From contig CM035360.1 in NCBI GenBank assembly GCA_020137815.1, forward strand, positions 7,378,001-7,442,000: a stretch of 64,000 nucleotides of DNA. The letters are read 5' to 3'. The stretch is from Hormiphora californensis. Taxonomy: Eukaryota > Animalia > Ctenophora. A model generated the notes under the pieces. The model saw nothing but the letters and a program-made list of their open reading frames with translations, ran no database searches and was not told the origin of the DNA. Below are positions 3,796 to 55,738 of the stretch, one piece after another. Made by a program: the position numbers and the translations under genes. Every line of letters begins with the position of its first letter. The first letter of the stretch is position 1.

Positions 3796-4425
3796 ATTTA
3801 TCAAGCTATTTACTTAGCTATGAAAATGGATATAAGTGGATATAACTGAACTAAACTTCGATATAACTAGTAGACAAATTGTGCAGTAGCTTATGTTATG
3901 CAAAAAGTAGTCGCGCTGTCAGAGCATTGGCCTGACAGGAGTCGCGAGCTCAAGCCTGAAGTGGATTAATGTGTTCCCGCTTCTCCATTAAAATGGGGAG
4001 TCATAAACCCTGCAGACAACTAACAAGCAAAATTCATGATATATTCAGGCAGTTTGACGACATCCAGCCGGCAGCCAGCGATGCGACGGCAACCGGTAGA
4101 ACGTACCCACTTCGAAATTTACTTGTTTGGTTGCGAACGCGAAGATCGCAAAGTTACTTCACGAAGAAATTCTTTGATATTTCTTCACGCGCACTAAAAA
4201 TTCACTGCGCGGCACAAACAGTTGATTTGCGCGCACATAAATATAGCACGCGCAGACTTTTTGTCGTCAAACTTTTATTTCTCGATCCAGCGATCAAAGC
4301 TAAAGAACTTTTTGCCCCAAAACTTTTTCGGACCTCCCTCTTTCCACATGAAGCCTTAGCTCTCGCCACGTGACACGTCCTGGGTCCCTTTCTCTAGCTA
4401 ACTTAAACCACCGTTTCAGCATGCT

Positions 4426-6330
4426 ATGAAAGTAAAAGTTCTCAACAGAAACCCTAACGATTATCTCAAAACTCGGTCCGGAGACCTCCCCAAGCTCCCT
4501 CGAAATGTAGATCCTACACTTCATCCCCATGCATCACAACGAGAATACACCCAGGCCCTTAATGCTGTGAAACTTGAACGAGTGTTTGCTAAACCCTTTG
4601 TTGGATCGCTTGATGGCCACCGAGATGGAGTGTATTCAATGCTTACCCACCCGAAACGGCTACCAATTTTGATTTCTGGTGCTTGTGACGGTGAAATCAA
4701 GATCTGGAATGTAACGACAAAGGAATGTCTTAGCACCCTGGCTGCTCACTCTGGATTTGTTCGGGGAATGGGGATTAACGAGGTCAGTCTTCCAGATAGC
4801 ACATCAATTTGTCATGACTTCAGTCCTACTAGGACTGTCCTAGTCAGTATTCTGGTCCTAATGATGTGATTTCGTTAGTTTCAATGACATTTCTCCCAAG
4901 CCAGGTGACTGTCTGATCTCTGTGGGTGATGACCAAATGGTGAAAGTTGTGGAATGTTGATGAAGCCATGAACAAAGGATCTATCCAGCCCAAACATACC
5001 ATTGTATCAAAGGTAGGATTGAATAACGAGCATATCATATGCCCTATCTTCACCTACAGCTATCTTACATCTTCGTTTTCCTTAATTCTTTCAAGCTCTA
5101 ATCAGAACCCCTTCAGACAATGTTGACTGGGGTTGACTATCAGTGGGGATCTAGCTCCGACACATTTGCCACGTGCGGTACATCGGTCGGGATTTGGAGT
5201 GTGAACCGAAACTGAGCCCCTTCGAACCTTTGATTGGGGAGTCGATACGATCAGTTCAGTAACTTACAATAAGGTTAGTCTTTCGTCAAAGATCAATTGG
5301 GATGTTGAAAAGAATAACTTGGACGATAGATAAATAAGCACTTTTAGATAAATAAGCACTTTTTTATCCACACTTCATCTCAGGTTGAAACGTATATGCT
5401 AGCCTCGACAGCTAGTGATCCGTAACATTGTCCTCTATGACTGTCGAGAGAACCAGCCCCTAAGAAAAGTCATCCTGTCCCAGAAGACTAACCAAGTAGC
5501 GTTTAATCCAATGGAAGCGTTTAACTTCACAGCAGCGTGCGACTGACAACTAATTTGTATACTTTTGATATGAGGAAACTGAAGACGCCTCTAAATGTTC
5601 ATATGGGCCATGCGATGGCAGTTTTATCAGTCAACTATTCACCAACAGGTATGTTGTCTCTCAGGATACTCTCTCCTAGTTAAAGTATCAATCTCTCTTC
5701 TGCTCCCTTTAGTTAAAGTAACAATCTCACTTACTATCTCATATTTCTCTGACACTTCCTCTCCTGTCAGGTCGTGAGTTTGTATCAGGAAGTTACGACA
5801 AGACTGTCCGTATTTTCCCAGTTGGGAAGGGCAGATCGAAGGAGGTCTACCACACGAAACGGATGCAGCGTGTGTTTCTGTACCCACTACAGTGCTGACA
5901 GCAAGTTCATACTGACGGGTAGTGATGAGACGAACATCAGGTTATGGAAGAGTCTGGCGTGGGGCCAAATGGGTCCTGTTAGTGCTCGGGAGAGGGCTGC
6001 ATTCGATTATAACAAGAAACTGATTGATAGATACAGTGAACATCCGCAGGTAAACCCCGCTTTTCTCTCTCCATCTTTCTATTTCTCGTCATAGTTTCAC
6101 AGTTTACCCCCTTACCAGCTAAGTCACCATCCTCACCCCCACCCCCCTAGGTTAAGAGGATAAAGAGGCACCGTAACCTTCCTAAGATGGTTAAATCTAT
6201 CAGCAAGGAACACATGAACATCAGATCTGCTCAAAAGAAGAAGGATGACAACAGAAGGAGACATGCAAAGGCTGGATCTGTGCCAAGAGTTGCGGAGAGG
6301 GCTAAACATGTTGTCAACGAGGAGGAATGA
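4426..6330 (+). CDS. DCAF13: DDB1- and CUL4-associated factor 13 / Sof1 (U3 snoRNP WD40 protein), multi-exon; several apparent 1-nt insertions
   Basis: MKVKVLNRNPNDY..., REYTQALNAVKLERVFAKPF, SDETNIRLWK and VKRIKRHRNLPK are Sof1 hallmarks. Frame breaks near 4943, 5210, 5420 and 5545. Confidence 0.93.
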
Positions 6331-6683
6331 ATCCCTCCATCTTGAAATGATGAGAGACGGTATGAAATGGGTGTATTTAATTTATTGACCAACCAACAAG
6401 GAACTGTGTATGAACTGTGAAAAAGAGACAACTGCAACAGAATATAAAGCTTGTTTTATGTGTTTCTTTAATCCCGAATTGTTTTATCAGACCACCAAAC
6501 CGTTCTGTCTTTATATCGTCTCATGTCCTACTTGTGCGGCTGTTTTTTACTTGACCTCAGTCCTTGTATTTAGTTATCATGTCTTAGTAGAAAGTACCCG
6601 ATATTTCAGTGCCGCCAACACCACAAGAAGATGAACTACTGATCTCATTTCTGGATTGGCCTTGCTCGATCGGTTGGTATTGA

Positions 6684-7316
<633 letters not shown>

Positions 7317-7463
7317 CTGTTGGTTTATATTGTTTATTTTTATGTGTTGTTCATAGTAATATTCTTGTTAACATTTTATTGTCCTAATTATGGTTTTATG
7401 CTCAACTCTAAAGGATTATTTTTATTACAAATTACAAATACCTAACCGATCCCAATCTGTAGC

Positions 7464-8929
7464 ATGGCACCACCCAGAGGCAGAGGCAGTTTCGGAGGAG
7501 GTCGAGGTGGCGGCGGCGGTGGTCGAGGTGGAAGCAGGGGCCGAGGTGGCTTTGGAGGTAAATATTAAACACCCATTTCCTAATCAGAAACATAACACCT
7601 AGAAAGATAATCGAATAGTAGTCACATACGGATATATGTCTATCACTCTAATTAGTTTTCCTACTTCCTAGTCCCTAACTCCCCCTCTCTCTGTAGGTCG
7701 AGGAGGAGGTGGTCGAGGTGGTGGTGGTCGAGGAGGTGGCAGGGGTGGTATGAGGGGAGGAAAGAAGGTGGTGGTTGAGCCCCACAGGCATAACGGTGTC
7801 TTCATTGCACGAGGAAAGGAAGACGCTCTGGTTACCAAGAACCTGACACCTGGTGATACCGTGTATGGAGAGAAGAAGGTAATTTCACTTAACAGATCCA
7901 GCTTTATTCTTTACAGTTCCCGGAGTCAATAGAAGAATAAACCAGTTTTAACAAAACCCTATTTTGTTCCTCACCCCTCCCTCCCTCAGGTTACTATTGA
8001 AGGAGTTGACGCCTCAGACAAGATCGAGTACAGGGTATGGAATCCTTTCAGGTCAAAACTTGCCGCTGCTATTCTTGGTGGAGTATCAGATATTCACATC
8101 CGTAAGTGGGAGATACGTGTATAACTTCTGACATTCATTATTTGTTCCCCAATCCCAAAATTAACTAACATCTCCTTCCCTCTCTCCTAGGACCTGGCAG
8201 CAAGGTTCTGTATCTCGGTGCTGCCAGTGGAACTACGGTGTCCCACGTTGCTGATATCGTTGGACCGGAAGGTATTGTGTACGCTGTTGAATTCTCCCAT
8301 CGATCAGGCCGAGATCTGATTAATGTTGCCAAGAAGAGGATGAACATTGTACCAATCATTGAGGTGAGAAAGGGTGACACAGTTTATTAATTCTGCTTAA
8401 AGGTTCTAACCTCTCCTCTTCTAGCCCCTGATCTAGTTGATTGTGTTTGCCTCTTCTAACCACTTCTCTTCTCCTTAACACCTCCTTTCCCTCTTCTAAC
8501 CCCCTCCCTCTTCTGCCCAGGATGCCCGACATCCCCACAAATACAGGATGCTCGTTGGTATGGTTGATGTCATCTTTGCCGATGTTGCCCAGCCAGATCA
8601 GGCGAGGATTGTCGCCCTGAACGCTCACTCCTTCCTGAAGAACAGCGGTCATTTTGTTATCTCCATCAAGGCCAACTGTATTGATAGTACTGCCGCTGCA
8701 GAGGCTGTCTTCGCAGGAGAGGTAGGAGCTTACAGTTAGATTCTTTTGTGATTACATTTTAAAGAACCATGGTTTTTGATGCACTCGTCTCCAACTCATA
8801 ACTCTCTTTCTCCAGGTCAAGAAGATGAAGGCCGAAAAGATGAAGCCAGTTGAGCAGATCACCCTTGAGCCCTATGAGCGAGATCACGCCGTGGTAGTAG
8901 GTGTCTACAGACCTCCTCCCAAGAAATAG
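7464..8929 (+). CDS. FBL: rRNA 2'-O-methyltransferase fibrillarin, 6 exons
   Basis: N-terminal RGG/GAR region; [81 protein letters not shown]. Confidence 0.97.
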
Positions 8930-9360
8930 GCTGGTGATGACGTCATAGGACACTGAGTGCCGAGAGAGTTTAGGTCGGGTGCTTGTGCTAGCCAGGGGAG
9001 GGCACAGGCGAGGTGTTTTATTCTTTTATTTATTAACCAGCTCTTTTTAAACAACTCTACACACTACCTTAATTTATTACAATTACAAACTCTCTTGCGT
9101 GAGAAAGGAAGGACAAGGGTTTAACGACATTTTTCAAACATACCAGCATAGCCCTAATTTATTAACAAAATGTGACACCCGCCCTCTGCGGAAAAATGTA
9201 CTGCTGAAAATTGCGTTTTACTACATCGTAACAACTTGTTTTCTTGTCTTTTGTTTCTCAACACTCATTTTCATACTCAAACAATATTAACCGTCTTTCT
9301 CCTTTAGTGATACCTCATTCCCCCAAACTCACTAACCAATACTCTGTTCTCTCTCTAGCC

Positions 9361-9728
9361 ATGACTAAGGGTACATGCTCGTTTGGAAAGCGACATAACA
9401 AGTCGCACACAATCTGCATCAGGTGTGGCAAGTCCTCCTTCCACGTCCAGAAGAAGAGGTAAATGTTGTTCCCCTTTCAATAGCTCACTTTTCTGTTCCT
9501 TTTTCTAACTAGAAAACCGTCCCTGACACTCATTCTCTTCCTACTAGGTGCTCCCAGTGTGCTTACCCCGCCGCCAAGCTGCGATCTTTCAACTGGTCTG
9601 TCAAGGGCAAGAGGAGGAAGACCACCGGAACCGGACGAATGGCCCATCTGAGGAACGTGCAGAGGCGATTCAGGAATGGATTCCAGAGCGGAGCTGCCAA
9701 ACCCCAGGCCAAGAAGACCAGCTCTTAA
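9361..9728 (+). CDS. RPL37: 60S ribosomal protein L37, 2 exons
   Basis: [64 protein letters not shown]. Confidence 0.97.
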
Positions 9729-9883
9729 ATTATTCTGATTCTGAGTTCATTTTTAACTATTGAAACTGCGTGTTTGTTCTGTCTCTACCATATCAAGATC
9801 CCAACTTACCTCGATTGTTACCATTTCTCTCGCTGTCTTTCTTTCTCCATTTCTGTCCCTAAATTCCCCATCTCTTCCCTAGC

Positions 9884-11707
9884 ATGACATTGTTCAGTCA
9901 GACCTCCAAGCTGCTTAAAGCTGAGGGGGAGAAGCCTAATGCCGTTGAGAGTGCCGTGTCCCAGGCCCTCCTTGACCTTGAGGCCAACTCCGACCTCGCC
10001 AACGCCCTCAGGGGTCTCTACTTTGTAGGAGCCGAGGAGGTCGTCATCAGGGACGATAAGGTGAGACGGGGGGGACGACATGTTAATTGTTAATAAATCA
10101 CCTCTTTTTTCGATTTTGTTAATTAACGTTAATTAACAAAATTAACAAAGTTAACAAATCAGCAAAGACTGTTCTTATTGGTTGATAACACGACTTTTAC
10201 TGGTTTAATTTTATAGTTTAATGACTTTTCTAACACATATACAGTCAGACCCCGATTTACCGGGCCCCGATTTACCGGTACCCCGATTTACCGGGACGAT
10301 AAAATTCCCCCGATCTAGGAAATTAACGGTAATTGACCCCGATATACCGGGCACCCCGTTTTACCGGTCAAAACCCTTTCCCCCGAGCATCCCGGTAAAT
10401 CGGGGTCCGACTGTATACCCAAACAAGGCCTCTTCCGATAACCAAAGTCCGAAATACATGTTTTTTTGGCTCAAAATCGATAAAAATCCAAAAGTTACAA
10501 ATATTTCAATTTAGCGTAAAAAATCTCACTTTAACGTGATTTTTTCATTGACAATCGATTCTTTGGACTTAAGAAGCTTCTAGAAGATGATGTACAACGT
10601 TTCTGTCGGAAAAAGAAACAAAATATTTCCAAAATCAATTTTTTGTTTAAAAATTGAAAATATGCTTCGCTACAAATCCTTGTGTTTTTTTAGAAAAATT
10701 AATTTTTGGGATATTTTTGTTTTATGGTAAATTCATGAGTCTTATTTAGTTTTTAGGGTTAAAAAAGGTGGATTAGGGTCAATTGACTTCAATTGCGGTT
10801 TAGTTTGGCTAGTTTTTATTAAAATTTACACAATGGAACAAATCGCTCTAGAAAAGCCGTAGTAGAGGTTAGTAGGGGTGTGCAAATCGTGCAAAAGGAA
10901 CAACTTTGCTCGCAGAACAAGTGTTAAATACCAAAAACACGCGCTAAAGGTGATTTAGATGGCATAAATGGCATTTGTTAACGTTTGTTAACTTTTTGTT
11001 AATTTTGTTAATAAATCACCTGTTTTCTCGATGTTAATATTAACAAAGTTAACAAAATTAACATGTCGCACCCCCCGGTGAGACGAGAGAGATATTTTAG
11101 AATGAATACTTCTTGTTTCTAACATAAGAATTTTAAAAAAGTTAGGTAAATCTGCCAACACTAACCCCATCCTCTTTCCTCCTCAGGTTGCGGTTGTCAT
11201 CCACATTCCCTTCCCCCAACAAAAGGTCTACCAGAAGATCCAATCGAAACTTGTCAGGGAGCTGGAGAAGAAGCTGAGTGGAAAGCACGTCATCTTCCTG
11301 GCCAAGAGGAGGATCCTCTCTAAACCCACCCGACACAGCCGAAACCTGAGCAAGCAGAAGAGGCCAAGGAGCCGAACTCTCACCGCCGTCCACGATTCCA
11401 TCCTCGACGATTTGGTTTTCCCCGCTGAGGTGTGTAGCATTTCTTTCATTCATCCCTGAACCCACCCGGCACCCCCTCTCGTTTTATGTGAACGCAATGA
11501 CAGTGTCATAGTGAATTCAAGTTAACTAACCCCACTTCCCATCAGATCACCGGAAAGCGAAAGAGGGTGAAGCTGGATGGATCCCAGTTGCTCAAGGTCC
11601 ACCTCGAGAAGTCCGCTCAGATTAACACCGAAACCAAGGTCGATACTTTCATGGCTGTCTACAAGAAACTGACGGGAAAAGACGTCGTGTTTGAATATGT
11701 GGACTAA
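9884..11707 (+). CDS. RPS7: 40S ribosomal protein S7 (eS7), 3 exons
   Basis: [22 protein letters not shown]; [24 protein letters not shown]; [25 protein letters not shown]; [13 protein letters not shown]...[14 protein letters not shown]. Confidence 0.97.
10069..11076. mobile_element. Non-autonomous TIR DNA transposon (Mutator-like) in RPS7 intron 1
   Basis: Termini GGGGGGACGACATGTTAATT / AATTAACATGTCGCACCCCCC; 9-bp direct repeat GGTGAGACG at 10060-10068 and 11077-11085. Confidence 0.75.
10242..10413. mobile_element. Tc1/mariner-type MITE nested in the Mutator-like element; degenerate relatives near 30240-30300, 34165-34195 and 62814-62883
   Basis: TA-flanked CAGTCAGACCCCGATTTACCGGG ... CCCGGTAAATCGGGGTCCGACTG inverted termini. 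Confidence 0.8.
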
Positions 11708-13502: not shown

Positions 13503-39731
<26,229 letters not shown>

Positions 39732-40875: not shown

Positions 40876-42294
40876 TTCCCATTTCCCTGTCCTTCCTACA
40901 TCTTCATGAGACTTAGTAGAGGGATCATCCAAGCCAGAGTAGTGAGAATTTTAGGTTCTTAGTGTGTTTTTTCTGTTTTAAGTGTATCTTGGCCTACGAG
41001 TTTGTGTAGAGTCTGAGTAGATGAGGTTCCAGATTGACTGAGTCTAAAGGGAGAAACGAAAGAAGAAAGAAGATCCATACATACCGTTTTAACGTTTTTA
41101 CCGATAAAAAACTATGCCATGTATGGACAATAAACTATTCGTGATGCTGAACTCTATTATTACCTATTAACCGTGTGTGTCTCATCTGATATTATGTCTG
41201 TTGTTATTATTTTGATGTTCACTTGTACCTGTTTGTTTATTTATTTATTTGACTGTTCTTTTGTTTGTTTGTTTGTATATATGCTTGTTTGTTAACTTTC
41301 TTGTTTGCCTGTCTGTTTAGTGTTAACTTATTTGTTTGTTTGTTTGCTTATTTATTTGTTTGGTTGTTTGTTTGTTCGTTTTGTTTGTCTGCGGGCTGTG
41401 TTGGTTTGTTTGTGCACTTTTTCAAAAGCCGTTGTATCTCAGTTATTTAATTGTGCAGTTTATGCTGATGTTATCTGCCTCATTGTATCGTGAACTAGCT
41501 TAACCCGCTTTAGGTAACCGCTGGTGCTTTCACATCAGCCTTGTAGCTTATTTTTTATATCTATTTATATTAAATATGTTTGGTGTAAGAGCGGGACAAG
41601 GTTTTAATATTTTTATATTGACTTTGTGATAAATAGTGATTAAACTTAAACTTGACAAACGGTTTTTCAGGGTTAAGTCTTAGGGCTAAAGTAGGGTTAG
41701 GGTTGGGGTTTGGCCTTGGGTTTGCGTTGGGGTTTGGGTCGGGGTTAGGCCTTGAGGCTTGACATTTCCTACCAGATAAACTTTGAATTAGCCAAATCGG
41801 TTGAGTGGTTTGGCGGTTAGAGCCATTTTTTTAGTAATTAGTGTATCAACTTTTTTGGCAGCGTGCACCTGTAAACATTTTTTTGAAAAACCGGGTTGAC
41901 CGGGCCCATTAATACGGAATATAACAATAAGTGTAATCAGTACATAAAGGTTAAAATAAATTAATTCGTTGCATTGTTTTTAATCAAGTATAAAATATTA
42001 AAATCATTCCTGTCTGTAAACCGTTTAGGACTGGAACCTCGGTGACCACGGAGGCTGACAACAAGGGTTTTCAAGAGACAAAAAACATGCCACCAAACAC
42101 CCAGATCGTAACGGCGCCCCTTCAGTTTCTTTTTTTGGAAAAACATTTTTCACGGCTATTTCAAAAAATGAATCATAGCCAGTAGCCACGCAGCCATTGG
42201 CCAATTTTAGTAATTTAGCCGGTATCTGATTGCTACTAATCCCTATTATCAAAATTGAGCTTAAATTGATGTTATTCTCGAAATCATAGTTAAA

Positions 42295-43559
42295 ATGGCA
42301 ACTGCTGAGGTAGAGATCCCGTCAGCTCTTGAAGAGTTAAAGGAGGTGAAGGAAGCAATCCCTCCAGTGCCCAAGAAACATCCTCTGGAAAATGCCTGGA
42401 CTCTGTGGTTCTTCAAGGAGGAGCGAGATAAGGACTGGATTGAATGCTACAAGAAAGTTGCTTCTTTTGAGACTGTCGAAGATTTCTGGGCCCTCTACAA
42501 CTTTATAATGCCTCCCACCCGACTTGGTGTAAAATGTGAATACTCTGTGTTTAAGGTATGTGTGATATATGTGTCAGCTGTGCAGTATGTGTCTTCCACA
42601 CCTCACTCACGCCTCACACATCTCTCTGAATCTGGTTAGGAGCCCTTGTCCCCATTTTTTAGGAGGGAATTCAGCCCATGTGGGAAGACAAGAGAAACCT
42701 TAGAGGCGGTCGATGGGTTTACGCAGTTCCCCAACAAAAAAATAGCAACGCACTTGACAAGCAATGGATGGAGATGGTAAGAGATTATGAGTGTTTTTAT
42801 ATTTCAGGATGGCATCAATCCTATGTGGGAGGATCCTAGAAATTGTGAAGGCGGCAAGTGGCGGTACAACATGCTGCTAAAGCAACAGGGAAATCTAGAT
42901 ATGTATTGGAAGGAGATGGTAAAGTTTTGGGGAGTAATTTTGACCTAAAAATAAAGTGTGGGGTTTTGCATGCCAGTGTGATTGAAATGTATGATTTGAC
43001 CTCGACTGACTATTCCTCTCTCAGCTGATGAGCATTGTGGGAGAGCAGTTTGATGAGCATTCCGGTGATGTGAACGGTGTTGTTCTACAGAGACGGCTGC
43101 GAAATGATCGTCTCTCCATCTGGGTATCAGACACTAACAACCTTACCTCCGTTCAAAGCATTGGGTGAGTGCTTCAACAAGCTATTTGTCAAAAATAAGC
43201 ATTTTTTATATTTGAATCACCATTTATACTTATTTCACATAAATTAAACCACCCAATTGTGTGTTGTTTTTACTTGCTGTTTTCACTGTAAACTAAGCAA
43301 TGCTGATCTGTTTGCCATTTCTACATTTCTGTCAGCTGAGCTTTTTATGTTGTTTTGGTCAATAATATTGAGATTTGACACTTCTCCCTACATGGTCTGA
43401 TTTAAATTGGGCCAACTTGACTAATATCTCTCTCCCCCTCCCTACAGATTGAAATTCAAGAGCACTCTCGGCCTCCCACCCAGTGTCAACATCCACTACG
43501 AATCCCACGCGGACGCTCAGACCAAGGCATCCAGTCACAAGTTCTCACTAAAACTCTAG
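42295..43559 (+). CDS. EIF4E: Eukaryotic translation initiation factor 4E (class I) with duplicated exon 2 (2A 42663-42776; 2B 42808-42918)
   Basis: KHPLENAWTLWFF...DW...FETVEDFWALY...CEYSVFK / (E/D)GI(Q/N)PMWED...GG(R/K)W / LMSIVGEQFD...DRLSIW / YESHAD. Other exons: 42295-42555, 43025-43164, 43448-43559. Confidence 0.96.
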
Positions 43560-43829
43560 GAAAACTCTGTGAACGCTCTCGGACTCACACGATTCGGACG
43601 ATCATTCGGATCTTTTGCTTCTTCTATTTTTTAAATCTCAGAGAGATCGTGGTGGGGTGGTTTGAATGGAATTGATAACGTTTGACAAATGTAATTTATT
43701 TGTGCAAAACACAAAACAAGTATAATTGTTTATGTGTTCCCATCGCCAGTTTCCCCTTTTCTCTATAAATGCCCCTCTCTGATAAAACCTCCCTCCCTCT
43801 CTCTGTCACCCTTCCCTCCCTTTAGCACT

Positions 43830-44924
43830 ATGGAAGGCTACTCAATCGGTGATATCAGTTCTCTCCTAAACTCCAGCACAGCACCAACTGCCACCCCCAC
43901 AAATGACCTCTTCTCAGCTACCCCTGCTACCACCCCCGTATCACTTGATGAGATCTACGCCAAACCGGCAGCTAAACGAGCCAAGAAAGACAAAAAGAAG
44001 AAGTCTGAGGATGATGTTTTAGAAAAAGAGGAGGAGAAAGAGGATGAACAACAGGGAGTTACTTACCAGCAGTTGTCTGCCGAGGAGAAGTTAGCCATTG
44101 ACAAAAGGACATTGTTCATTGGAAATTTGCCAATTGGTAGTAACAAGAAACAGCTGCACCGTGTGTTTAGAGAGTTTGGTAAGATTGAGTCAATGAGGTT
44201 CCGATCAGTTGCTGTTAGTGACCTAAAACTCGGTAAGAAAGTGTGTATGAAGGCAAACAAGGTGAACGAGAATGCGACCAATAAGAATGCTTACATCGTG
44301 TTTGCTAGTGAGGAATGTGTGACTGGGGCGGTTGTAAAGAACGGCTCCAAAATAGGAGACAACTGTATCCGAGTAGACAAGGTGGTTAAATCGAAAAAGG
44401 AACAGAGTGATGACCAACAAAAGTCCATATTTGTTGGTAACATGCCATTTGGTGCAGCTGAAGAGGAGGTCCGGGAGGCCCTGGCTCAGTGTGGGGAAAT
44501 TGAGTACGTGAGACTAACTCGTGACAAACAAACCAACATTGGTAAAGGGTTTGGGTATGTTAAGTTTGTGGATTCTGCTGGAGTGATGTTGGCTATGAAG
44601 ATCAAGGATAGTGTTACAGTTGGGGGAAGGCAACTCAGGATTCAGCGGTGTAAGAGCAAGGTTACACTGGAAAACAAGAAGAAGATATCGGATGAGAAGA
44701 AGAAGAAGAAAGAAGAGGAAGAGGAGGGAAGGAAGAAGGGTGGGTTCCGAGGGAGAAAATCCAAGGGTACAGATAAGGATTTGTTTAAAACTAAATCACC
44801 CGCTGGGAAGAAGGGTTTCAAGCCACCCGGTAAGGGGAGCAACAAACAGAAACCGATCAGTAAGAGGAAGTTCGATAAAAAGGTTAACAAGGCATCCAAG
44901 AAAAATCAGGCTCCAGCGAAATGA
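43830..44924 (+). CDS. RBM34: RNA-binding protein 34 / Nop12-like nucleolar protein with two RRMs; intronless
   Basis: RTLFIGNLP...FGKIESMRFRSV...NAYIVF; SIFVGNMPF...NIGKGFGYVKF; Lys-rich tail. ATG 43830 follows a pyrimidine tract-AG. Confidence 0.9.
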   Translation: MEGYSIGDISSLLNSSTAPTATPTNDLFSATPATTPVSLDEIYAKPAAKRAKKDKKKKSEDDVLEKEEEKEDEQQGVTYQQLSAEEKLAIDKRTLFIGNLPIGSNKKQLHRVFREFGKIESMRFRSVAVSDLKLGKKVCMKANKVNENATNKNAYIVFASEECVTGAVVKNGSKIGDNCIRVDKVVKSKKEQSDDQQKSIFVGNMPFGAAEEEVREALAQCGEIEYVRLTRDKQTNIGKGFGYVKFVDSAGVMLAMKIKDSVTVGGRQLRIQRCKSKVTLENKKKISDEKKKKKEEEEEGRKKGGFRGRKSKGTDKDLFKTKSPAGKKGFKPPGKGSNKQKPISKRKFDKKVNKASKKNQAPAK

Positions 44925-45339
44925 GGAAAAACGACAGCTGATGATTGATGGATGACTGGTTAAGTTTGAAGGACGCTCTGTTTTAACTGTAGCTTTGGAG
45001 AGGTTTTTAAGTTTCAGTTATGTGACACGGGTAATTTATTATTTTACTGCAGAGTAACACTTTTAACAAAACAACTTTGTTTTCTTTCCCCCTTCTCCCC
45101 TACTATACCTCTCTTGCATGGAGAATTCTTACATGTACAACATGTTTTTTATTCAACCAAGCTAAGATTGCTTTTAATAACATGTTGCACAACTTTTCTC
45201 AGCTACATCTCTCTCAACGATTTTCTCCCCCAATCCTGATAACTCCATCACCCCCTCGCATAATACATCCCATATCCTTTCATCCCCCACCTTTCCTGAT
45301 TCTCTAGTTCTCTCACTAACACCTTATCTTACAGCACAC

Positions 45340-48010
45340 ATGGCGTTAGCAGCAACCAGGAGAACTAATGTGCGTCTCCCGCCTGAGGTTAACAGGATTC
45401 TATACGTGAGGAACCTTCCCTATAAAATCACTGCTGAGGAGATTTACGATATTTTCGGGAAGTACGGGCCTATCAGACAAGTCAGAGTGTAAGTAGTTAT
45501 CTGGGCCTATCAGACAAGTCAGAGTGTAAGTATTTATCTGGGGTTCAGGAGTAAATAATAATAATAATAATAATAAAGGGTTTTTAGTATACCGCTCAGT
45601 CCAGACAGGGCTGGATCATTGACATGAGTCCAACACTGCCCAGATTCAGAGCGGTACACCAAGGTTGCTAATATCCTGACTCACTTAGAACAAAATAGAC
45701 ACATCTACTGATTATATACTCCAAAAATTGAAAAAAGCCTAAGGAAAAACGGGACACATAAACTTCTGGAAAACAACTTGTTAGCTGAAATTAAATAACA
45801 GACTATAAATCGAGATAAAGAAACAAAGCCAGTAGCCCTCATGCTACAAACAAAAGTCAGCCCAACTGCATCAGCAGCCCCCCTGCTATAATAGCCCTAG
45901 GAAGGGAAATAGTAAGGAATTGTTATGCTAGAATTGCCTGCTCGACACGGGAAAGGGGAAGGATAGGACACCTCCGATTACAACTCTGAAGCAGATCCGA
46001 ATGCCTCCTGAAACAACCTTGTCTTTAGTCTTGTTTTAAACAGATCAACAGGATGAACTGATCTGAGCTCAAGGGGGAGATCATTCCATACATCAGGAAG
46101 AAACACCGAAAGTCTCCTCCGACGCAACTTCGAGTTTGCATTGATACTTGATAGTTTGGGATATTTTAGCCGGAGAAAGTCTGGAACAGTTGTAGCCCTC
46201 GTCATCCTCACAGATCCATATTCCTCATCCCTAGGTACCAAATCCAACAAGTACCTAGGGGCAGTTCCTCGAACAATCTTGTAAGCCAGGAGACATGCCT
46301 TAAAAGTTAATCTCTGCTGTATTGGAAGAATGTGAGCCTCTTTGAAATACTCCATGTAATCATCTTGATGACCATTCAGATTAAAGACAAATCGGATACA
46401 GGAGTTCAGAGTCTTCTGTAGATTTTGAAGGATTCGTTGTGGAAGTCCATAGTACAAGATATTACAATAGTCAATCTTTGATATCACCAGCTGCTTTACC
46501 AGAAGGATCTTAGTACTCTTGTCTAGGCACTTATTAACTTGCCAGAGGTTCTTCAGCATCAGTCCACATTGTCGTTTCACATTATTTACCTGACGCTCCA
46601 GCGTAAGGTGATCATCAAGTAGTACTCCTAGTGTTTTTCCAGTCTGTCCTTGGCATCTCATTGGTACTAATGACGTACCCCCAAAGTTTATTACCGGATC
46701 AAAATTGAGCTTTTCCAAAGAGCTCGATTTCCCAAGGAGGACAAACTCTGTCTTGTCTTCATTACACTTAAGCCAGTTAGAGACCATCCACTTCTTCATA
46801 TTACCAAGGCACTCCTCCACTGCCTGCTTCGTTACATTCCATCCATCTGCATCAGTCGGTATCAGGCTAACATACAGTTGAGAGTCATCAGCATAGAGCT
46901 TGATGCTCAAACCATATGGCCGGGCAATATCCTGTAATTCCTCAATGTAAAGTAGAAAAAGAACCGGTCCTAACAGAGATCCCTGTGGAACCCCACAGAT
47001 AAGGGCAATAGCCGCTGAAAGTTCTCCTCGTATGTTCACTTGAAAATTCCTCGATCCCAGGTAACTCCTAAACCAGTCCAACGCCAATCCAGTAACACCA
47101 AACCTCCTCTCTAATACTCCAATCAGCGCCTGATGGTCCACCGTGTCAAATGCCGCACTCATGCCGCACGCATGTTTTTTGTTACTAGGATTTTTCCGTG
47201 TCTGGGATTTAGTTACGAAGTCACCCCTAATATTTCGCCCCACTGGGGTGCTCACGCGGAGGGATAATTTCATTACCAAGTCTGGGAGTTGGAGAGATCT
47301 TGTTTAGTTGTTTTCAGTGTGATGAAGCAACATTTTTCTTGTATGTGGGCACTAATTATAACTCAGCATCGTTTTAAAGAGACAGCTCATGACCGTCTCT
47401 TCAAGAGACTCTCTTGATACCTTTTACGTACTACCATTCGAGTTACGAAATGCCTTGATATTATAACTCTATCTCTATAATAGTTCTTTAGAGTTTAATC
47501 GATCACCGATCACAAAACTTAAGGTAGGATTCTCAGAACATCCATTTCCAAGAACAATCCTTATTTTCAGGGGCACCAATCCTGAGACAAAGGGGACAGC
47601 GTTTGTTGTGTATGAGGACATATTCGATGCTAAGAACGCGTGTGATCATCTTAGTGGATTTAATGTGTGTAACAGATATCTTGTAGTTCTTTACTATCAA
47701 TCAACAAAGGTAAAATATTAGCAGATTTAGTGTTGTACTAAGTGGTACTTACTTGGTTCAAATGATGCCATAATGAAAGAGAGAAAGAGAATAAGAGATG
47801 TGGGATGATGGATTTTGTTGCTAATGGATAACAATATAGTACTTGTAGTTGCATTGTCATAGCTTTTACAACGCCCATCACTACCTTTCCATAGAATAAT
47901 ATACCTAACCCATTCTCCCACTACAGTTGTACCAGAAAGTTGACGCTGAGAAGAAGCAAGCTCAGTTAGATGCCGCTAAAAAGAAGTATGGTGTAGATGG
48001 GGCTAAATAA
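45340..48010 (+). CDS. SF3B6: Splicing factor 3B subunit 6 (p14), 3 exons
   Basis: [39 protein letters not shown] / [42 protein letters not shown]. Confidence 0.97.
45553..47160 (-). mobile_element. 5'-truncated CR1/L2-group LINE in SF3B6 intron 1
   Basis: RT motifs [41 protein letters not shown]; C-terminal WNDLP...FKTRLKT; 3' (TTA)n tail near 45553-45575. Confidence 0.93.
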
Positions 48011-48283
48011 GGGGGACGGCTGGAGATTAGGAAATCTCTAACTACACACCAGTGAGCTATTCAGATACTGCAACAAGCGGGGCAAAGAGAAGAACTAAGA
48101 AGGAGACAGAGACAATATGTTCTATTTTATTATATTGACACATCTTATCATAACCTTGGGGTCAATGCCCTGGTATTCAACTTGTATTATTTTCTAATAG
48201 GGTCCGACACCAGATATTTCCCTGTTTTATCTAACTATCCTTCTTCTATCTACAGCATGTAAATCAGATAGTAACGTGGTGTA

Positions 48284-48992
48284 ATGTCTGATTTGAGGTC
48301 CTTCACGTCGATATTCATAAGGCAGGATCAAGGTAAGATTTTCCCAGGACCCTGACTAACCCTTTTCTTGCCTAGCTAGACTGTCTGAACAAAAGTCAAA
48401 ACAACCCTTTTCTATCTAGGACACTTCAAACTAACCCTTTCTTCTCTTCCCAGATCGGCCATCTGATCAGAGTGACCAGGACCTCCTCACCGAGCAGTCA
48501 ACATCATGGAATCCATGGTCAACAGCTGTCCAGGAAGACCCCTGGCTCCCCTCCATGACCAAAAAGCAAAGACTCATGGGCTTCCTAGCATGTCTCATGG
48601 GTGGCTCTCTCTTCTTCTCAATCTCCTTGATTTACCTTCCCTTTATCCTGCTCAAAGCACGGAAGTTTGCCCTTCTCTTTTCACTAGGCTCGGTGTTTAC
48701 CATGGCCAGTTTCTCACTCCTGTGGGGTCCGATGAATCACATTAAACACCTCCTATCCCGGGCCAGGCTACCCTTTACTGTGGCCTATGTAGGAACACTA
48801 TTCGGGACTATATATGTGGCTATGGTACTAAAAAGTACTCTTCTCACAGTACCCTGTGCGGTGTTTCAATTAGTTGCCCTCCTGTGGTATGTGTTTAGTT
48901 ATGTACCAGGTGGGGTGACTGGTCTCAAGTTTTTAACCAAGTTGTTGGGGAGTGCGCTGGTGAAGAAAGCAGAAAATATCCTGCCGGTGTAA
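48284..48992 (+). CDS. Vesicle transport protein SFT2 (Got1/Sft2 family, SFT2D3-like), 2 exons
   Basis: LPSMTKKQRLMGF...KARKFALLFSLGS...LWGP...RLPFT...WYVFSYVPGG. Confidence 0.9.
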
Positions 48993-49066
48993 AAGACAAT
49001 TGTGTGATGTTTTGGTGGTCTTCAGATGCACAGAATCTTCCATTTCTTTGCAGGGGGTATTACAAG

Positions 49067-50616
49067 GTGGCCCATAAATTATGATAGCGGGGGACGAGCT
49101 GTACCTCCGAAACGGTGATAGTTATGTAAAAACAAACTACGGGAACATGCTGGAACAATTCCTGGACGGCTTTTTGCAAATTATGAAATTTTTATTCAAA
49201 AGTTCATTTCTCATTCATGAACTTTCTCCACGTTCATTAATGAACTAAGGACTCTAATTTACCGAGAGTGAGGCATTTTGTTTGGGTTGAATTTATCTTT
49301 CCAATGAGCACCATGAAAATCAAATTGAAGCACCAGGTCACATGGCAGTTGAGAAAATGCACATGCATGATTTTGGCTCTTCCTGCGACTTTCAATCAGC
49401 TGCATCACGGCTACCTTTTGTTCAATCTATTTGAAACTTTGGGTGAACATAGGATAACCAAAGATCTTTCCTCACAAGAAAAATCAAGGTCAAAACTGAA
49501 AGTTCATTTTTGAGTTTTGGTAGTTCATTCCACTCATTCAGGAACCAACATCCCTAAAGTGATGAAAAGTGATTGGTTTTGTTTGGCCCATACCCTGCGA
49601 TGATGGAGAGGTGTAAAAACACGTTTCCGGGCTAGTTAGTGGGTGTCCATGTGATCATGATGATATCTGACACCTCTTCTGAGCCATAATCAAGGGATTT
49701 TCTCGAATTCAAGAATGTGATTTGGGTTATCTGTGATTGGTATCGTGCAGCAATGTTGAGAGACCTCATAGCACCTCAAAAATTATGATTAGCTCAATGA
49801 AATGAGTTGATTTATGATAGAAGAGATAAAACAGACGTCAAAATGAACTTAACTACCATTTTCGATCCAAAATCAGCTCATTTCATTGAGCTAATCATAA
49901 TTTTCGAGGTGCTATGAGACCTCTCAACATTGCTGCACGATACCAATCACAGATAACTCAAATCACATGCTTGAATTCGAGAAAATCCCTTGATTATGGC
50001 TCAGAAGAGGTGTCAGATATCATCATGATCACATGGACACCCACTAACTAGCCCGGAAACGTGTTTTTACACCTCTCCATCATCGCAGGGTATGGGCCAA
50101 ACAAAACCAATCACTTTTCATCACTTTAGGGATGTTGGTTCCTGAATGAGTGGAATGAACTACCAAAACTCAAAAATGAACTTTCAGTTTTGACCTTGAT
50201 TTTTCTTGTGAGGAAAGATCTTTGGTTATCCGATGTTCACCCAAAGTTTCAAAAAGATTGAACAAAAGGTAGCCGTGATACAGCTGATTGAAAGTCGCAG
50301 GAAGAGCCAAAATCATGCATGTGCATTTTCTCAACTGCCATGTGACCTGGTGCTTCAATTTGATTTTCATGGTGCTCATTGGAAAGATAAATTCAACCCA
50401 AACAAAATGCCTCACTCTCGGTAAATTAGAGTCCTTAGTTCATTAATGAACGTGGAGAAAGTTCATGAATGAGAAATGAACTTTTGAATAAAAATTTCAT
50501 AATTTGCAAAAAGCCGTCCAGGAATTGTTCCAGCATGTTCCCGTAGTTTGTTTTTACATAACTATCACCGTTTCGGAGGTACAGCTCGTCCCCCGCTATC
50601 ATAATTTATGGGCCAC
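49067..50616. mobile_element. 1.55-kb near-perfect palindromic foldback element
   Basis: ~745-bp arms (49067-~49812 vs ~49869-50616) with a ~55-bp spacer; the mirrored 81-aa ORFs differ by one residue. Confidence 0.92.
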
Positions 50617-50821
50617 GCATTTATTCAGCATGTTGTGTGGTACGTTATGAGTGTACAGTTTGAGTATAATTTATTTGTGAGAGTTTGTGTATAAACCATT
50701 GGTTGAATGTTGGTATCTTTTTGCATGATATTTCGGGGAAAATGTTTGTCATCATAATTCGCTTAATCAGCTCATTTGAAAACTTTTTAAAAACTAACTT
50801 AACCCCTAGCCTAGTTACATT

Positions 50822-52179
50822 ATGGGTGACAGTGCACTTACCTCGCTGACTAAAGAGCAGATTGATGAGCTGTATAAAACTGGTGCCTTTCTCGTAATTA
50901 AGAATATGCCGCCTGGCACAGAGTTTGGAATCGACTACGCTAGCTGGACGGTAAGAGTGGTATAGTAGGGTGAACTAGTGGGGAAATTCGAGTGAAAATT
51001 GAGTCATTTATTATTTTTTATAGTTCAACTTCTAAAATTTAAAAATAACCTCCTCTCCAGGTTGGACCCAAGTTCATGGGGCTGAAGATGGTCCCACCGG
51101 GTGTCCACTTTATATTTTACAATGCTGTCAGTAAAGAGGGGGCGGTGGGATCTAGAACCGGATTCTTCCACTCATTCTCTAAGGGCGAGGTTAGTAAACT
51201 GCAGACAACTCCTATTGCAGTTGTACTTGTAGAGGAAGCATACGACGTGTCCAATTTATGGAACCTCTTTTAATTTTTTAAGGTTCAGCGATAGTACTCT
51301 ATTTTCTTGCCATCCTAATTCTCAACCCATCCCATTTAGGTATTGTATAAGGAGTGGAACGCGAAGGAGGAAACCCTAACAAACCTTCCTGAACCTCACC
51401 CCTCTCCTCAATCCCTCGATACCAACCTCGCAGCATACCCCTTCCAGCACCTCAAACGGTGGACAAGTCTCAGTGACCATGTGACGCCTCTCTCTGTTGC
51501 TCGAACCACTCCCTCCTCGGGGTATATCTACTCAGCTACTGCCCTGCTGCCCAATCCCAATGCTGCCCAAGATGTGAATGATGCAGTGACAATTGAGGAA
51601 AAGTTGGACGCTAAGTTTGTTACAGACCCAGAAAACACGATGAAATTCACAAAAGTTGACCGGAAAGGTGCGAGTAGGGGTAAATCAGGGTCTGATTTAT
51701 CCCAGTTTTTCCTGGATACATCTGGTACAGTTGATTGGATGATGGGGGAGTGCGGGGGTGAAGGTGAGGTTCTGGCGGAACTCCAGATATCCTTCATTGT
51801 CTTTCTTCTGGGACATGTTTACAGTGCCTTTGAGCAGTGGAAACAAATGGTGGACACCCTTTGTAGAGCTCAGACATCCCTCCAAACTCGACCAGAGTTC
51901 TACAAATCATTTATCCACACCCTACATTTCCACCTGAAGGAGACACCACGTGACTTCTTCGTGGACATAGTGTCACGTGACAATTTCCTGGCAGCTTGTC
52001 TGGGAGAGTTTTTCAGGACGCTTGGTGAGGGGGAGCAGGAGGGGGTTATAGATAAAGGGTTAGTTGAGAAGGGGAGGAAGTTTAGAGGGCATCTAGAGGA
52101 ACATTTTAGTTGGGAGTTTGATGAGGGAGATGAGGATGAGTTACCTGTTGTGGTTGAACTGCCGAGTGATGTTGCTTAA
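50822..52179 (+). CDS. AAR2: AAR2 U5 snRNP assembly factor, 3 exons
   Basis: PPGTEFGIDYASWT/VGPKFMGLKMVPPGVHFIFY; LAELQISFIVFLLGH...FEQWK; DFFVDIVSRDNFL; DEDELPVVV. Confidence 0.93.
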
Positions 52180-52428
52180 CTTTATCATGTTTTAATGATC
52201 TGTGGGATACGTTACAGACGTTTTTAGTTGTTTATTTATTTTGATAAATAGTATTTTTAACCGATTTTATCCAGTTCTCGTTTATTTCGGCTCCATTCCC
52301 CATCTTTACCCTACTAACTCCCCCTCCCCTCCTTCCCCCATCTCTACCCAACTAACTCCCCCTCCCCTCCCCTGGCCCTCCTTCCCCCATCTTTACCTAA
52401 CTAACTCCTCCTCCACCTGACAGCGTGT

Positions 52429-53487
52429 ATGAGTCACGGCACCGGGTCCTCCTCCCACAAGACGGTCCAGGGTCTGAGTGTCAACCAAGATGGGGCATGT
52501 TTCACTGTCGCCATGGATACTGGATACAGGGTCTACAACTTGGAACCATTAGCACCCCTCGCTCAGGGAAGTTTTGAGGAGTTCGGTTCAGTTCGTATTG
52601 TCCAGATGTTACACCGGACTAACCTGATAGCAATGGTCGGAGGGGGGTATCAGAGTAAATTTAGCGGGAAAATGTGCCGCATTTGGGATGCCGCTAAGAA
52701 ACAATTTGTCTTGGAATTCTCATTTGATTCTGTGATAAAGGCAGTGAGAATGACCCGGGATCGACTTGTTATCGTGCTCACAAATAAGATTTGTATATTC
52801 AGTTTCCCGGAGGACCCAAAACACCTCCAAACCCTTGAGACCAGGGCCAATATCCGGGGTATTTGTGAAGTATGTCCCTCGAATTCTGTAATGGTATACC
52901 CTGGTACCTGGGCGGGTAGCCTCCAAATATTCGATCTGACCACTGCAGGGGCAGCAGTTGGGGCCACCTCTACGCCACCTACCATTAACGCCCACAAGAC
53001 GGAACTACAGTGTGTGGCTCTGAACCACAGTGGTACAATGGCTGCCACAGCTAGTGGGAAGGGGACACTTATCCGGGTGTTTGATATGAGGTCCAGGCAG
53101 TTGATTATTGAGGTTAGGAGGGGTACAGACACTGCCACTGTTAATTGTATCACCTTCAATAGAGACAATACTTATCTGTGTGTTAGTAGCGATAAAGGGA
53201 CAGTCCATATATTTGCTATTAGAAATCCTGAACTAAATAAACGGATAACGGTAGCGAATGTTGGTTATCTGGGTAGCCAATGGGCCATGTCTAGTTTCAC
53301 ACTGAAATCAGAATGTTCTTCAGTCTGTGTATTTCCACCCCACTCCTCCGGTGCTGCTGTTAAAAATGCGGTGATAGCCCTGTGTTATGATGGTACCTAT
53401 CACAAGTATGTCTTCACAAAGGATGGGAACTGTAACAGAGAGGCGTATAATGTATTTCTGGATATCACACAGGACCTTGAGATATGA
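52429..53487 (+). CDS. WDR45: WD repeat phosphoinositide-interacting protein (WDR45/WIPI4-like PROPPIN); intronless
   Basis: NQDGACF, MLHRTNLIAMVGGG, ATASGKGTLIRVFD, EVRRGTD, SSDKGTVHIF, YHKYVFTKDGNCNREAY. Confidence 0.9.
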   Translation: MSHGTGSSSHKTVQGLSVNQDGACFTVAMDTGYRVYNLEPLAPLAQGSFEEFGSVRIVQMLHRTNLIAMVGGGYQSKFSGKMCRIWDAAKKQFVLEFSFDSVIKAVRMTRDRLVIVLTNKICIFSFPEDPKHLQTLETRANIRGICEVCPSNSVMVYPGTWAGSLQIFDLTTAGAAVGATSTPPTINAHKTELQCVALNHSGTMAATASGKGTLIRVFDMRSRQLIIEVRRGTDTATVNCITFNRDNTYLCVSSDKGTVHIFAIRNPELNKRITVANVGYLGSQWAMSSFTLKSECSSVCVFPPHSSGAAVKNAVIALCYDGTYHKYVFTKDGNCNREAYNVFLDITQDLEI

Positions 53488-53951
53488 GGGGTGTTTTGAT
53501 TTTCTGTTTGTTTCTAAATTTCTTTTGAACTTGTGACAGCTCAGATAATGTGTGTTACATGTATAATTACAGAGAGAGTTAGAGAGAGTTAGAGAGAGAG
53601 AGGGTACTGACTGTCAGAGAAGGCTGGATACTCCCTGCCATTGCAAGTCTGGGTAGTGTGATGTGAATTTGTTTGTTTGATTTTGTTAAGAATTTGTATG
53701 AATTGTAAACACAACATTTTAGCTGCTAATGTCCTGAGACAGTATTATATAGCAGTGTACTAAGAATTGTTTGACTGCCACCATTCTCTACCTCCTGATT
53801 TCTACACGCTTAGCTGCTGAGAAATCTCTCTTTCTCTCCCCCTCTCCAATCCCCTTCTCCTGAGATCATCCTCTCTGATCCTCTGTATTATCTGACCCTG
53901 TTTCATCATCATACATTTCAAGTTATCGTCTTGTATTCTAGTAGGTGCAGG

Positions 53952-55738
53952 ATGAATTACGACCAGTTGATTCAGAAGATTGGGGCGGCTGTATTTAAGA
54001 TTGGGTCCAATGTTAATAGTCTTCAGAAGCAGGTCTCTATTATTGGGACTCCCGGGGAAACACCCGCTCTTAGGGCACAGTGGGAGAAAAAGAAGGTAAG
54101 GATGCCCTATTTTGTTTTGAAACCGGTCCAAAAAGAAACATCTTCATCTGAATGTTACCATTTAATAATAGTTATATTATTAGTGAATTATCTCTCTCAG
54201 AATGAGATCCAGGCAGCGGTAGAGAGTACTAACACGATGATGAGACAAGTAACAGACATCTGCAAAGATTCACCTTCCCCACAGGAAGAGGTATCTATAT
54301 TAACATGTACTACAACTGTTTACTGTGAATATGGGACTTGGGTCACCCAAAATATGTGTATTTACAGCACTCGACTCATACAGTTCACGGTCATCCTCAA
54401 TAAATAGTTTTACGTTGTAGTTGATGAAAGTTTGAAACTTATGTTTTTAGTTTTACTGATTGTAGCAGTTGCTAAATTTGAAATGTTTGTCATTCGTCGT
54501 TGTTTGATAATCGTTTAATTCGTGTTTGTAACAAAATCAAACATGATAATTGTCTGGGAGTGGTACAATATTATGTTAACGCTATGTAGTGTCTCTTGCA
54601 GAAAACAAGGAAGATTCAGGTAGAGAGACTACGACAACAGTTTACAGATGCATTGAAACAGTACAAGAAATATCAGTCGGTAAGTTAATAGAGTGAGAGA
54701 GAGAGAGAGAGAGAGGGGGAGAGAAAGAGAGGGAGTGACAGAAAGGTGACATCACCACATATAATATAAATTCTTCAAAATTCTCCCACTCCCAAAAGAG
54801 GGTTCTAACCCCTGATATTCCCCCTAGATTGAGGCTGAGAAGGAGAGGGCAGCCCTGTCCCGAATGAGATCCCGAACTGCCTCCCTGCGTTCTGAGATCA
54901 CGAGACAGCCTGTTGTAGACACTCAGTATGCTGAGAACGACCAACTCGTAGATGATGATAACAGGTAACGCGCAGCAACTCCAAACTTATTAAAGTTCAC
55001 TCCTGCCAGCAAAAGGGTGGCGCGCGACCCACCGCGACTCTGAATATCTGGAGCGGCGATAAAAATGCTCCCTTTTTCGGCTGATAACAGTGTTTTGACA
55101 GGCAGCAAAAGTTGTCTGAGCTCCAGGAATTTCAAGATGAACTGGACACCACGACAGCTTTGATAAATGAGAGAGAAGAGGCAATCAGGCGATTAGAGGT
55201 TAGTAATGTTAAGATTGCATCAATCGATTATCATAAAAAGAGATTACTATAACGTTTTGCTTTGCAAAAGGATGTTATTTGATAATATGTATTTGTTTCA
55301 GACTGATATGGTTACAGTTAATGAAATGTTCCGAGAGATTGGTGCTATGGTATATGAACAAGGCGATATGATCGGTATGTTACAACATCCTGTCACCATT
55401 AGATTGTCACCCTCTATTCCTCCCACTACAACAACACGTTATAATTCCTAGAATAAGGATCGGTTGATTGATTATCAGCCACATAATCAGTGAATAATCA
55501 AGTGAGAAATCAAGATTTATTCACAAGTTATAATTCCATTAAACCTCCCCCAGATAATATCGAGGCGAATGTGGAAGTAGCGCACCAGCGAGTGGAAGAA
55601 GGAACAGCGGAGGTGGTGAAGGCTTCTCAATACCAAAACAAATACAGAAAAAAGGTGTTCATCCTTCTGGGGATTGTAACGATAGCCGCTGTTGTTATTG
55701 GTCTGGTTATCTATCTGTCTACAAAGGGGAAGAAATGA
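53952..55738 (+). CDS. Endosomal syntaxin (STX7/STX12-like), about 7 exons
   Basis: Habc helices; SNARE motif EREEAIRRLE/TDMVTVNEMFREIGAMVYEQGDMI/DNIEANVE; C-terminal TM. Confidence 0.88.

Follow-up and report, generated by a model that had tools for sequence, protein, structure and literature searches.

The class I eIF4E gene of the ctenophore Hormiphora californensis carries two homologous phase-0 exons, 2A (114 nt) and 2B (111 nt), that lie 31 nt apart. The gene was found in a 64,000-nucleotide stretch of contig CM035360.1 (assembly GCA_020137815.1, positions 7,378,001 to 7,442,000 of the forward strand), referred to here as the window; all positions below are counted from its first nucleotide. 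Exons 2A and 2B are very probably spliced in a mutually exclusive manner, use of 2B being evident from annotated products of related species. Going by the sequences, we lean toward an explanation in which each mRNA receives only one of the two exons, the canonical 2A form being common and the 2B form, probably minor, being predicted to dock partners and RNA differently.

The gene lies on the + strand. The spliced leader is joined at a trans-splice acceptor AG at 42288-42289, marked by loose 5' ends in 3/4 RNA runs. Exon 1 (42290-42555) starts translation at the ATG at 42295 and provides 87 codons, including the equivalents of W43, W56, V69 and W73; residues 1-59 match the Pfam IF4E domain. Intron 1, leading to exon 2A (42556-42662; 107 nt, GT..AG), was seen as a junction in three of the four runs. 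Exon 2A (42663-42776), the canonical-type copy, aligns with human eIF4E residues 96-133, has R112, V114 and M131, and is flanked by RNA junctions on both sides. The spacer (42777-42807, GT..AG) contains the 2A donor and the 2B acceptor. Exon 2B (42808-42918), the derived copy, has C108, K112, R114, N116 and K131. An inferred 106-nt intron (42919-43024) connects 2B to exon 3 (43025-43164), the acceptor of which is also used from 2A across 248 nt. Exon 3 encodes the equivalents of R157, K162 and W166. Intron 3 (43165-43447, 283 nt), with a junction in 4/4 runs, is followed by exon 4 (43448-43719), which has the stop codon TAG at 43557-43559 and a poly(A) site past 43719, placed by an A-rich loose end in one run. 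Exon 2A is preceded by AG and followed by GTAAGA, and exon 2B by AG and GTAAAG, both in phase 0/0. The initial annotation had described two intact phase-0/0 exons, each with its own AG acceptor and GTAA donor; the coordinates, translations and sites all match, and its 31-nt gap is exact. The predicted products have 208 aa with 2A only, 207 aa with 2B only, 245 aa with both and 170 aa with neither, and retention of the spacer between 2A and 2B leads to a stop at 145 aa.

Class I eIF4Es are defined by tryptophans at human positions 43 and 56, both of which are present in the alignment to human eIF4E. The IF4E domain (Pfam, on exon 1) and the eIF4E fold (2B model) were also found. Against human eIF4E the two isoforms reach 189 and 194 bits; class II and class III chains stay far below, at 98 and 79 bits compared with 189. 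Human EIF4E (PDB 2w97/1ipb; PF01652), the best PDB match for both isoforms, has the same fold and the same aromatic and basic cap positions, but the ctenophore gene encodes residues 96-133 in two alternative exons, one of which, 2B, introduces lysine at 112 and 131 and arginine at 114.

The 2A and 2B peptides are identical at 19/37 positions, and their alignment score was reached by none of 2000 shuffles. Nucleotide identity at codon positions 1, 2 and 3 is 24/37, 27/37 and 15/37, respectively, and of the 19 residues in common, 10 are encoded by different codons. The decay at third positions and the different codons for shared residues identify an old exon duplicate under constraint at the protein level.

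Both exon types were recovered from relatives. In Bolinopsis microptera one gene has two annotated products, XP_063689787.1 (isoform X1, 2B-type) and XP_063689788.1 (isoform X2, 2A-type). In Mnemiopsis leidyi, KAL5248229.1 (2B-type) and KAL5248230.1 (2A-type) are annotated under one locus tag. Neither pair shows any difference outside the alternative exon. The 2A exon of the window is identical at 28/35 positions to lobate 2A (Bolinopsis X2, Mnemiopsis 230) and at 23/37 to lobate 2B; the 2B exon matches Bolinopsis X1 at 27/37 and Mnemiopsis 229 at 28/37, but lobate 2A at only 18/35. Closer to Hormiphora, a Pleurobrachia bachei gene model is identical to exon 1 at 85/87 residues (76% for Bolinopsis microptera) and to exon 2B at 37/37, whereas the intron after 2B has diverged there; the match in exon 1 marks the window as that of a Pleurobrachia-type ctenophore. 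In this record, the only one from Pleurobrachia to include 2B, the gene model continues past 2B into intron sequence. It was the sole candidate (1/1) in a search with the 2B exon, and the corresponding 2B region from Bolinopsis, used as query, gave no homologue candidate. The presence of both exons in related species, which the initial annotation had put forward as a check, thus holds for Bolinopsis and Mnemiopsis, and 2B is also present in the P. bachei model. A scan of metagenome contigs with a degenerate 2B motif gave one match, rejected as an out-of-frame chance match in a bacterial ilvD-like gene.

In a tree of the exon (12 rows and 37 columns, with 3 of 5 intended outgroups left out), a single branch separates the three named 2A rows from the four 2B rows. 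This branch has a support of 87/100 (not starred) and is present in 100% of 200 bootstrap trees. Since the exons group by type across genera, the duplication is older than the split between Pleurobrachia and the lobates. All 11 of the other full-length ctenophore eIF4E proteins, from transcript-size contigs in two clusters, are 2A-type. A more distant ctenophore-like cluster of eIF4Es (P0005, P0031-P0042) carries an exon of the 2A type in which position 105 is P, as it is in 2B, and may represent a lineage that branched off before the exon duplication.

The spacer is probably not long enough for splicing as an intron. Thirteen other introns were placed in the window: three from RNA (107, 248 and 283 nt) and ten inferred by eye or from exons with contiguous Pfam matches (89, 89, 106, 111, 116, 143, ~150, 157, 1126 and 2082 nt), the Pfam scan taking in 150 of the 214 ORFs of the window. 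The initial annotation had considered the spacer shorter than the other introns; at 31 nt it is below all 13, but the shortest of these is 89 nt rather than 60. An ultra-short spliceable intron, as occurs in some compact genomes, was considered for the spacer and is unlikely given this shortest length, in a small sample. The motif YTRAY is found 15-27 nt before the AG in all six constitutive acceptors tested. It is absent from the introns of both alternative acceptors (the last 60 nt of 42556-42662, and 42777-42807). The nearest YTRAY to the 2B acceptor lies within exon 2A, 50 nt upstream. TTGAC within exon 2A (A at 42757) is a candidate distant branch point for 2B.

If the usual YTRAY spacing applied within the spacer, the 2B branch point would lie about 4-16 nt from the 2A donor. 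A distance of less than 50 nt between donor and branch point is regarded as steric interference (PMC5740500); the whole spacer is 31 nt, so that a branch point anywhere within it would fall under this limit. The exons also have the features of a mutually exclusive pair in being neighbouring, homologous, of similar length and same phase, with splice sites of their own. Because both are multiples of three, decay triggered by a frame shift cannot police double inclusion, so that a steric mechanism probably maintains exclusivity. No docker/selector RNA structure was found: each of 100 shuffled versions folds better than the 501-nt region, in which the inverted repeats are short and weak. Among the ctenophore proteins retrieved, none contains both 2A and 2B. 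Taken together, the annotated isoform pairs in two lobate genera, the conservation of 2B and the short spacer make mutually exclusive splicing very likely. The initial proposal of this splicing mode is well supported by these three points, though no 2B junction was seen in the contigs of this species.

The RNA evidence comes from contigs of 4 of the 20 listed runs, all of them marine RNA assemblies from three studies. These contigs show the junctions from exon 1 to 2A (42555>42663) in 3/4 runs, from 2A to exon 3 (42776>43025) in 4/4 and from exon 3 to exon 4 in 4/4. Of the junctions that the initial annotation had listed for counting, the two of exon 2A were thus found, but 42555>42808 and 42918>43025 were not, and exon 2B was neither covered nor joined in the contigs, which drop minor variants, of any of the four runs. 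The 2A-2B joint, 42776>42808, was likewise missing from the contigs of all four runs, a weak negative as contigs cannot show absence. Since minor variants are dropped, these data indicate that 2A prevails in these samples, and not that 2B is unused. In 3/4 runs the eIF4E mRNA has 19-24 extra nucleotides at its 5' end (42288). They match the ctenophore spliced leader, which we take to be TMG-capped, and show that the eIF4E mRNA is itself trans-spliced; the premise of leader trans-splicing in the initial annotation is therefore real for this very gene. The leader sequence is printed in PMC8527503, where it is also reported on 56% or more of the long reads from Hormiphora. The leader is joined 5 nt upstream of the ATG. 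No copy of it was found within the 64-kb window.

Residues W102, E103, W113 and W130 are present in both exon copies, as initially annotated, but of the two copies only 2A has R at the 112 equivalent listed with them, 2B having K. The PMWED loop, which grips the guanine, does not vary across the 2A and 2B copies. The remaining cap residues W56, R157, K162 and W166 are encoded by shared exons, with R at 162 in both isoforms. Thus the full set of cap residues (W56, W102, E103, W166, R112, R157 and K162, with Arg112 touching the cap phosphates; PMC4306533) is present in this eIF4E, save for K at 112 in 2B and R at 162 in both. Five differences from 2A to 2B are fixed in three genera: L108C, R112K, V114R, A116N and M131K. 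In addition, 2B has a conserved K-Q/H-Q/H-G loop.

The rarity of these residues was assessed in 139 parsed sequences of 167 non-ctenophore eIF4Es, best-scoring relatives and thus class I-biased, with 28 unparsed sequences left out. Of the 139, 118 have L, M, I, V or F at position 131, while 7 have R and 1 has K. Position 114 is basic in 4/139; K112 is common (32/139). The combination of basic 114 and basic 131 occurs in 0/139 and in all 2B copies. From these counts, 2A is the canonical copy and 2B the derived one. The dorsal surface that binds eIF4G and 4E-BP comprises H37, V69, W73, L131, E132, L135, I138 and E140, and Leu131 is one of the mouse eIF4E residues contacting 4E-BP1 (review, PMC12644199). 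These residues are kept in kind in 2A; in 2B, 131 is K, with E132 and the rest unchanged.

Modelled with AlphaFold from a 112-row alignment, the 2B isoform of Bolinopsis comes out as a normal eIF4E; it has a pLDDT of 91 and matches eIF4E in Foldseek with an E value of 1e-27 and a TM score of 0.83; a single-sequence fold (pLDDT 43) was not usable. In the model, the swapped exon accounts for the loop with W102, for one strand and for the first part of the long dorsal helix. Residues 112, 114 and 116 alternate along the strand. Because they share it with residue 112, which contacts the cap phosphates, residues 114 and 116 likely face the RNA side in this model. In a study of Ascaris eIF4E (PMC3203607), the segment Val128-Arg135 is perturbed only by spliced leader RNA, and an effect of the leader on the interface between eIF4E and eIF4G is proposed. 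Ascaris Glu116 and Val128 correspond to human 103 and 115, which places the leader-sensing segment at 115-122, inside the swapped exon. Human 115-122 is the most divergent part of the 2A/2B swap.

In the mechanism we propose, the 31-nt spacer would block double inclusion by placing the 2B branch point beside the 2A donor. 2A would be the housekeeping form and 2B a minor form, or one limited to a stage or cell type. The change from M/L131 to K on the dorsal helix would weaken or redirect binding of the eIF4G/4E-BP motif. R112K, V114R and A116N, together with the K-Q/H-Q/H-G loop, would alter the strand and loop where capped RNA, including the spliced leader, exits the pocket. 2B keeps the residues that grip m7G, and the swap would re-tune the coupling of the capped 5' end to eIF4G/4E-BP rather than the fit of the methylated cap. 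The residue roles in 2A and 2B are by analogy, carried over from mouse, human and Ascaris. M131K may be tolerated, since 2B leaves E132 and the remaining dorsal contacts as they are and since K or R is found at 131 in 8/139 other eIF4Es.

The consequences of the swap could also be smaller. The exons would still be mutually exclusive, but the swap would tune only affinity, stability or kinetics, both forms having the same partners and mRNAs and 2B serving stage or tissue dosage. The core cap residues and E132 retained in both copies are consistent with such mild tuning, as are the occurrence of K112 and of basic 131 elsewhere in the family and the similar scores of the isoforms against human eIF4E. 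We nevertheless consider it rather unlikely, since the rare C108, R114 and K131 are fixed in 2B of three genera while the loops drift. It is very improbable that 2B is not an alternative exon in this species at all, being silent, a product of annotation, or included along with 2A. Its absence from the contigs of the four runs, the single Pleurobrachia record running into an intron, and the open frame that double inclusion would keep can be cited for this. They are outweighed by the loss of minor variants from contigs, the fully identical P. bachei peptide next to a diverged downstream intron, the orthologous 2B peptides in two lobate genera, the intact splice sites, and the lack of any two-copy product among the ctenophore proteins retrieved.

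A larger effect was suggested by the initial annotation, which spoke of swapped cap pockets and of a switch between m7G and trimethylguanosine (TMG) caps, as made by nematode paralogs. The first term is overstated, as PMWED is invariant and the other pocket residues lie in shared exons. The switch itself is poorly supported and in our judgment quite doubtful. The swapped exon does carry W102, E103 and R112, and trans-splicing is widespread in ctenophores (in Hormiphora, at least 56% of long reads; PMC8527503) and acts on the eIF4E mRNA. Furthermore, simulations tie TMG tolerance to loop dynamics and not to pocket residues (PMC3076583), so that an indirect effect of the swap on cap choice is possible; however, the loops named in that study (S1-S2, S5-S6 and S7-S8) are encoded by shared exons. 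Ascaris eIF4E-3, which translates both cap types, has R112, L114 and L131, like 2A in kind and like C. elegans eIF4E-3, but 2B has K, R and K; thus 2B has no signature at 112, 114 and 131 in common with the TMG-translating protein. The N2 methyls are without protein contact, and TMG affinity is similarly low for human and Ascaris proteins (Liu et al., PMC3203607). With the leader on so many transcripts, the prevailing 2A form should already read trans-spliced mRNAs. A more far-reaching possibility, judged from sequence and unlikely, is that the exon switch makes a dedicated second eIF4E, in which 2B would read leader RNA through R114 and the 115-122 loop and would escape or redirect 4E-BP/eIF4G control through K131. 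If so, one splicing choice would reset the class of mRNA translated, trans-spliced or not, for example maternal mRNA. We continue to favor a common 2A form alongside a probably minor 2B form that is predicted to dock differently.

Known eIF4E diversity stems from paralogous genes or alternative N-termini. The nematode paralogs (Ascaris eIF4E-3, C. elegans IFE-1 to IFE-5) also represent several eIF4E forms in animals with leader trans-splicing, and the leader-sensing segment of the Ascaris protein corresponds to part of the swapped exon, but nematodes use a separate gene for each form and the ctenophore swaps an exon in one gene. Vertebrate eIF4E1b, an oocyte paralog, binds 4E-T rather than eIF4G (PMC4306533). 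A class I-type cap binder with an intact pocket and altered partners, it is what 2B is predicted to be, but is a separate gene. Among exons that arose by tandem duplication, those of myosin heavy chain and the human mutually exclusive exons with steric interference are likewise homologous neighbours of the same phase and similar length that encode one structural element and have a very short spacer (PMC3912159, PMC5740500). What sets the ctenophore case apart from known hosts of such exons is that the host gene is a core cap-binding translation factor. The main text of PMC5740500 does not name EIF4E. In Ctenophora, to which 2A/2B adds a deeply conserved pair, the one predicted case found in print is that of cluster-0 of the Mnemiopsis myosin gene Mhc2 (PMC3912159).

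A full-text search of mostly open-access literature, judged by titles and abstract openings, gave no description, among the matches listed, of alternative core exons in eIF4E or of ctenophore eIF4E isoforms. This search covers main texts; whether the pair is new may also depend on the tables of mutually exclusive exons in PMC5740500 and on the annotation of Hormiphora. Both isoforms are already in public annotation, but without interpretation as far as the literature searched is concerned. A conserved exon swap in the folded core yields two otherwise identical proteins. They amount to a controlled experiment set up by nature on 37 residues that connect the loop at the cap with the strand where the RNA exits and with the helix for eIF4G/4E-BP. 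In Mnemiopsis, a laboratory model from the earliest-branching animal lineage, the 2A/2B pair allows a direct test of how eIF4G recruitment is coupled to spliced leader RNA, a question left open in PMC3203607.

Other features were noted among eIF4E records and in the window. Two non-ctenophore eIF4E records (P0068, P0079) have the cap-loop motif twice; the repeats reach beyond the swapped exon and may be an artefact of assembly or gene models. An SF3B6-like gene has a 37-nt tandem duplication of the end of exon 1 with its donor (45466-45539), resulting in two GTAAGTA donors 37 nt apart. Its inferred 2082-nt intron contains an antisense reverse transcriptase ORF (Pfam RVT_1; 45981-47303, - strand). 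An intronless nucleoside transporter ORF (36002-37198, + strand) lies amid minus-strand exons encoding leucine-rich repeats (28677-39612) and is probably a nested gene, a common arrangement in Hormiphora. Two runs of closely packed genes occupy the + strand. One (4402-11704) consists of the housekeeping genes DCAF13-like, NKAP, fibrillarin, RPL37 and RPS7, and the other (42290-55735) of eIF4E, an RRM protein, SF3B6-like, SFT2, AAR2, WD40 and syntaxin. The RRM ORF begins about 110 nt past the eIF4E poly(A) site. Both same-strand housekeeping runs could be gene clusters resolved by the leader.
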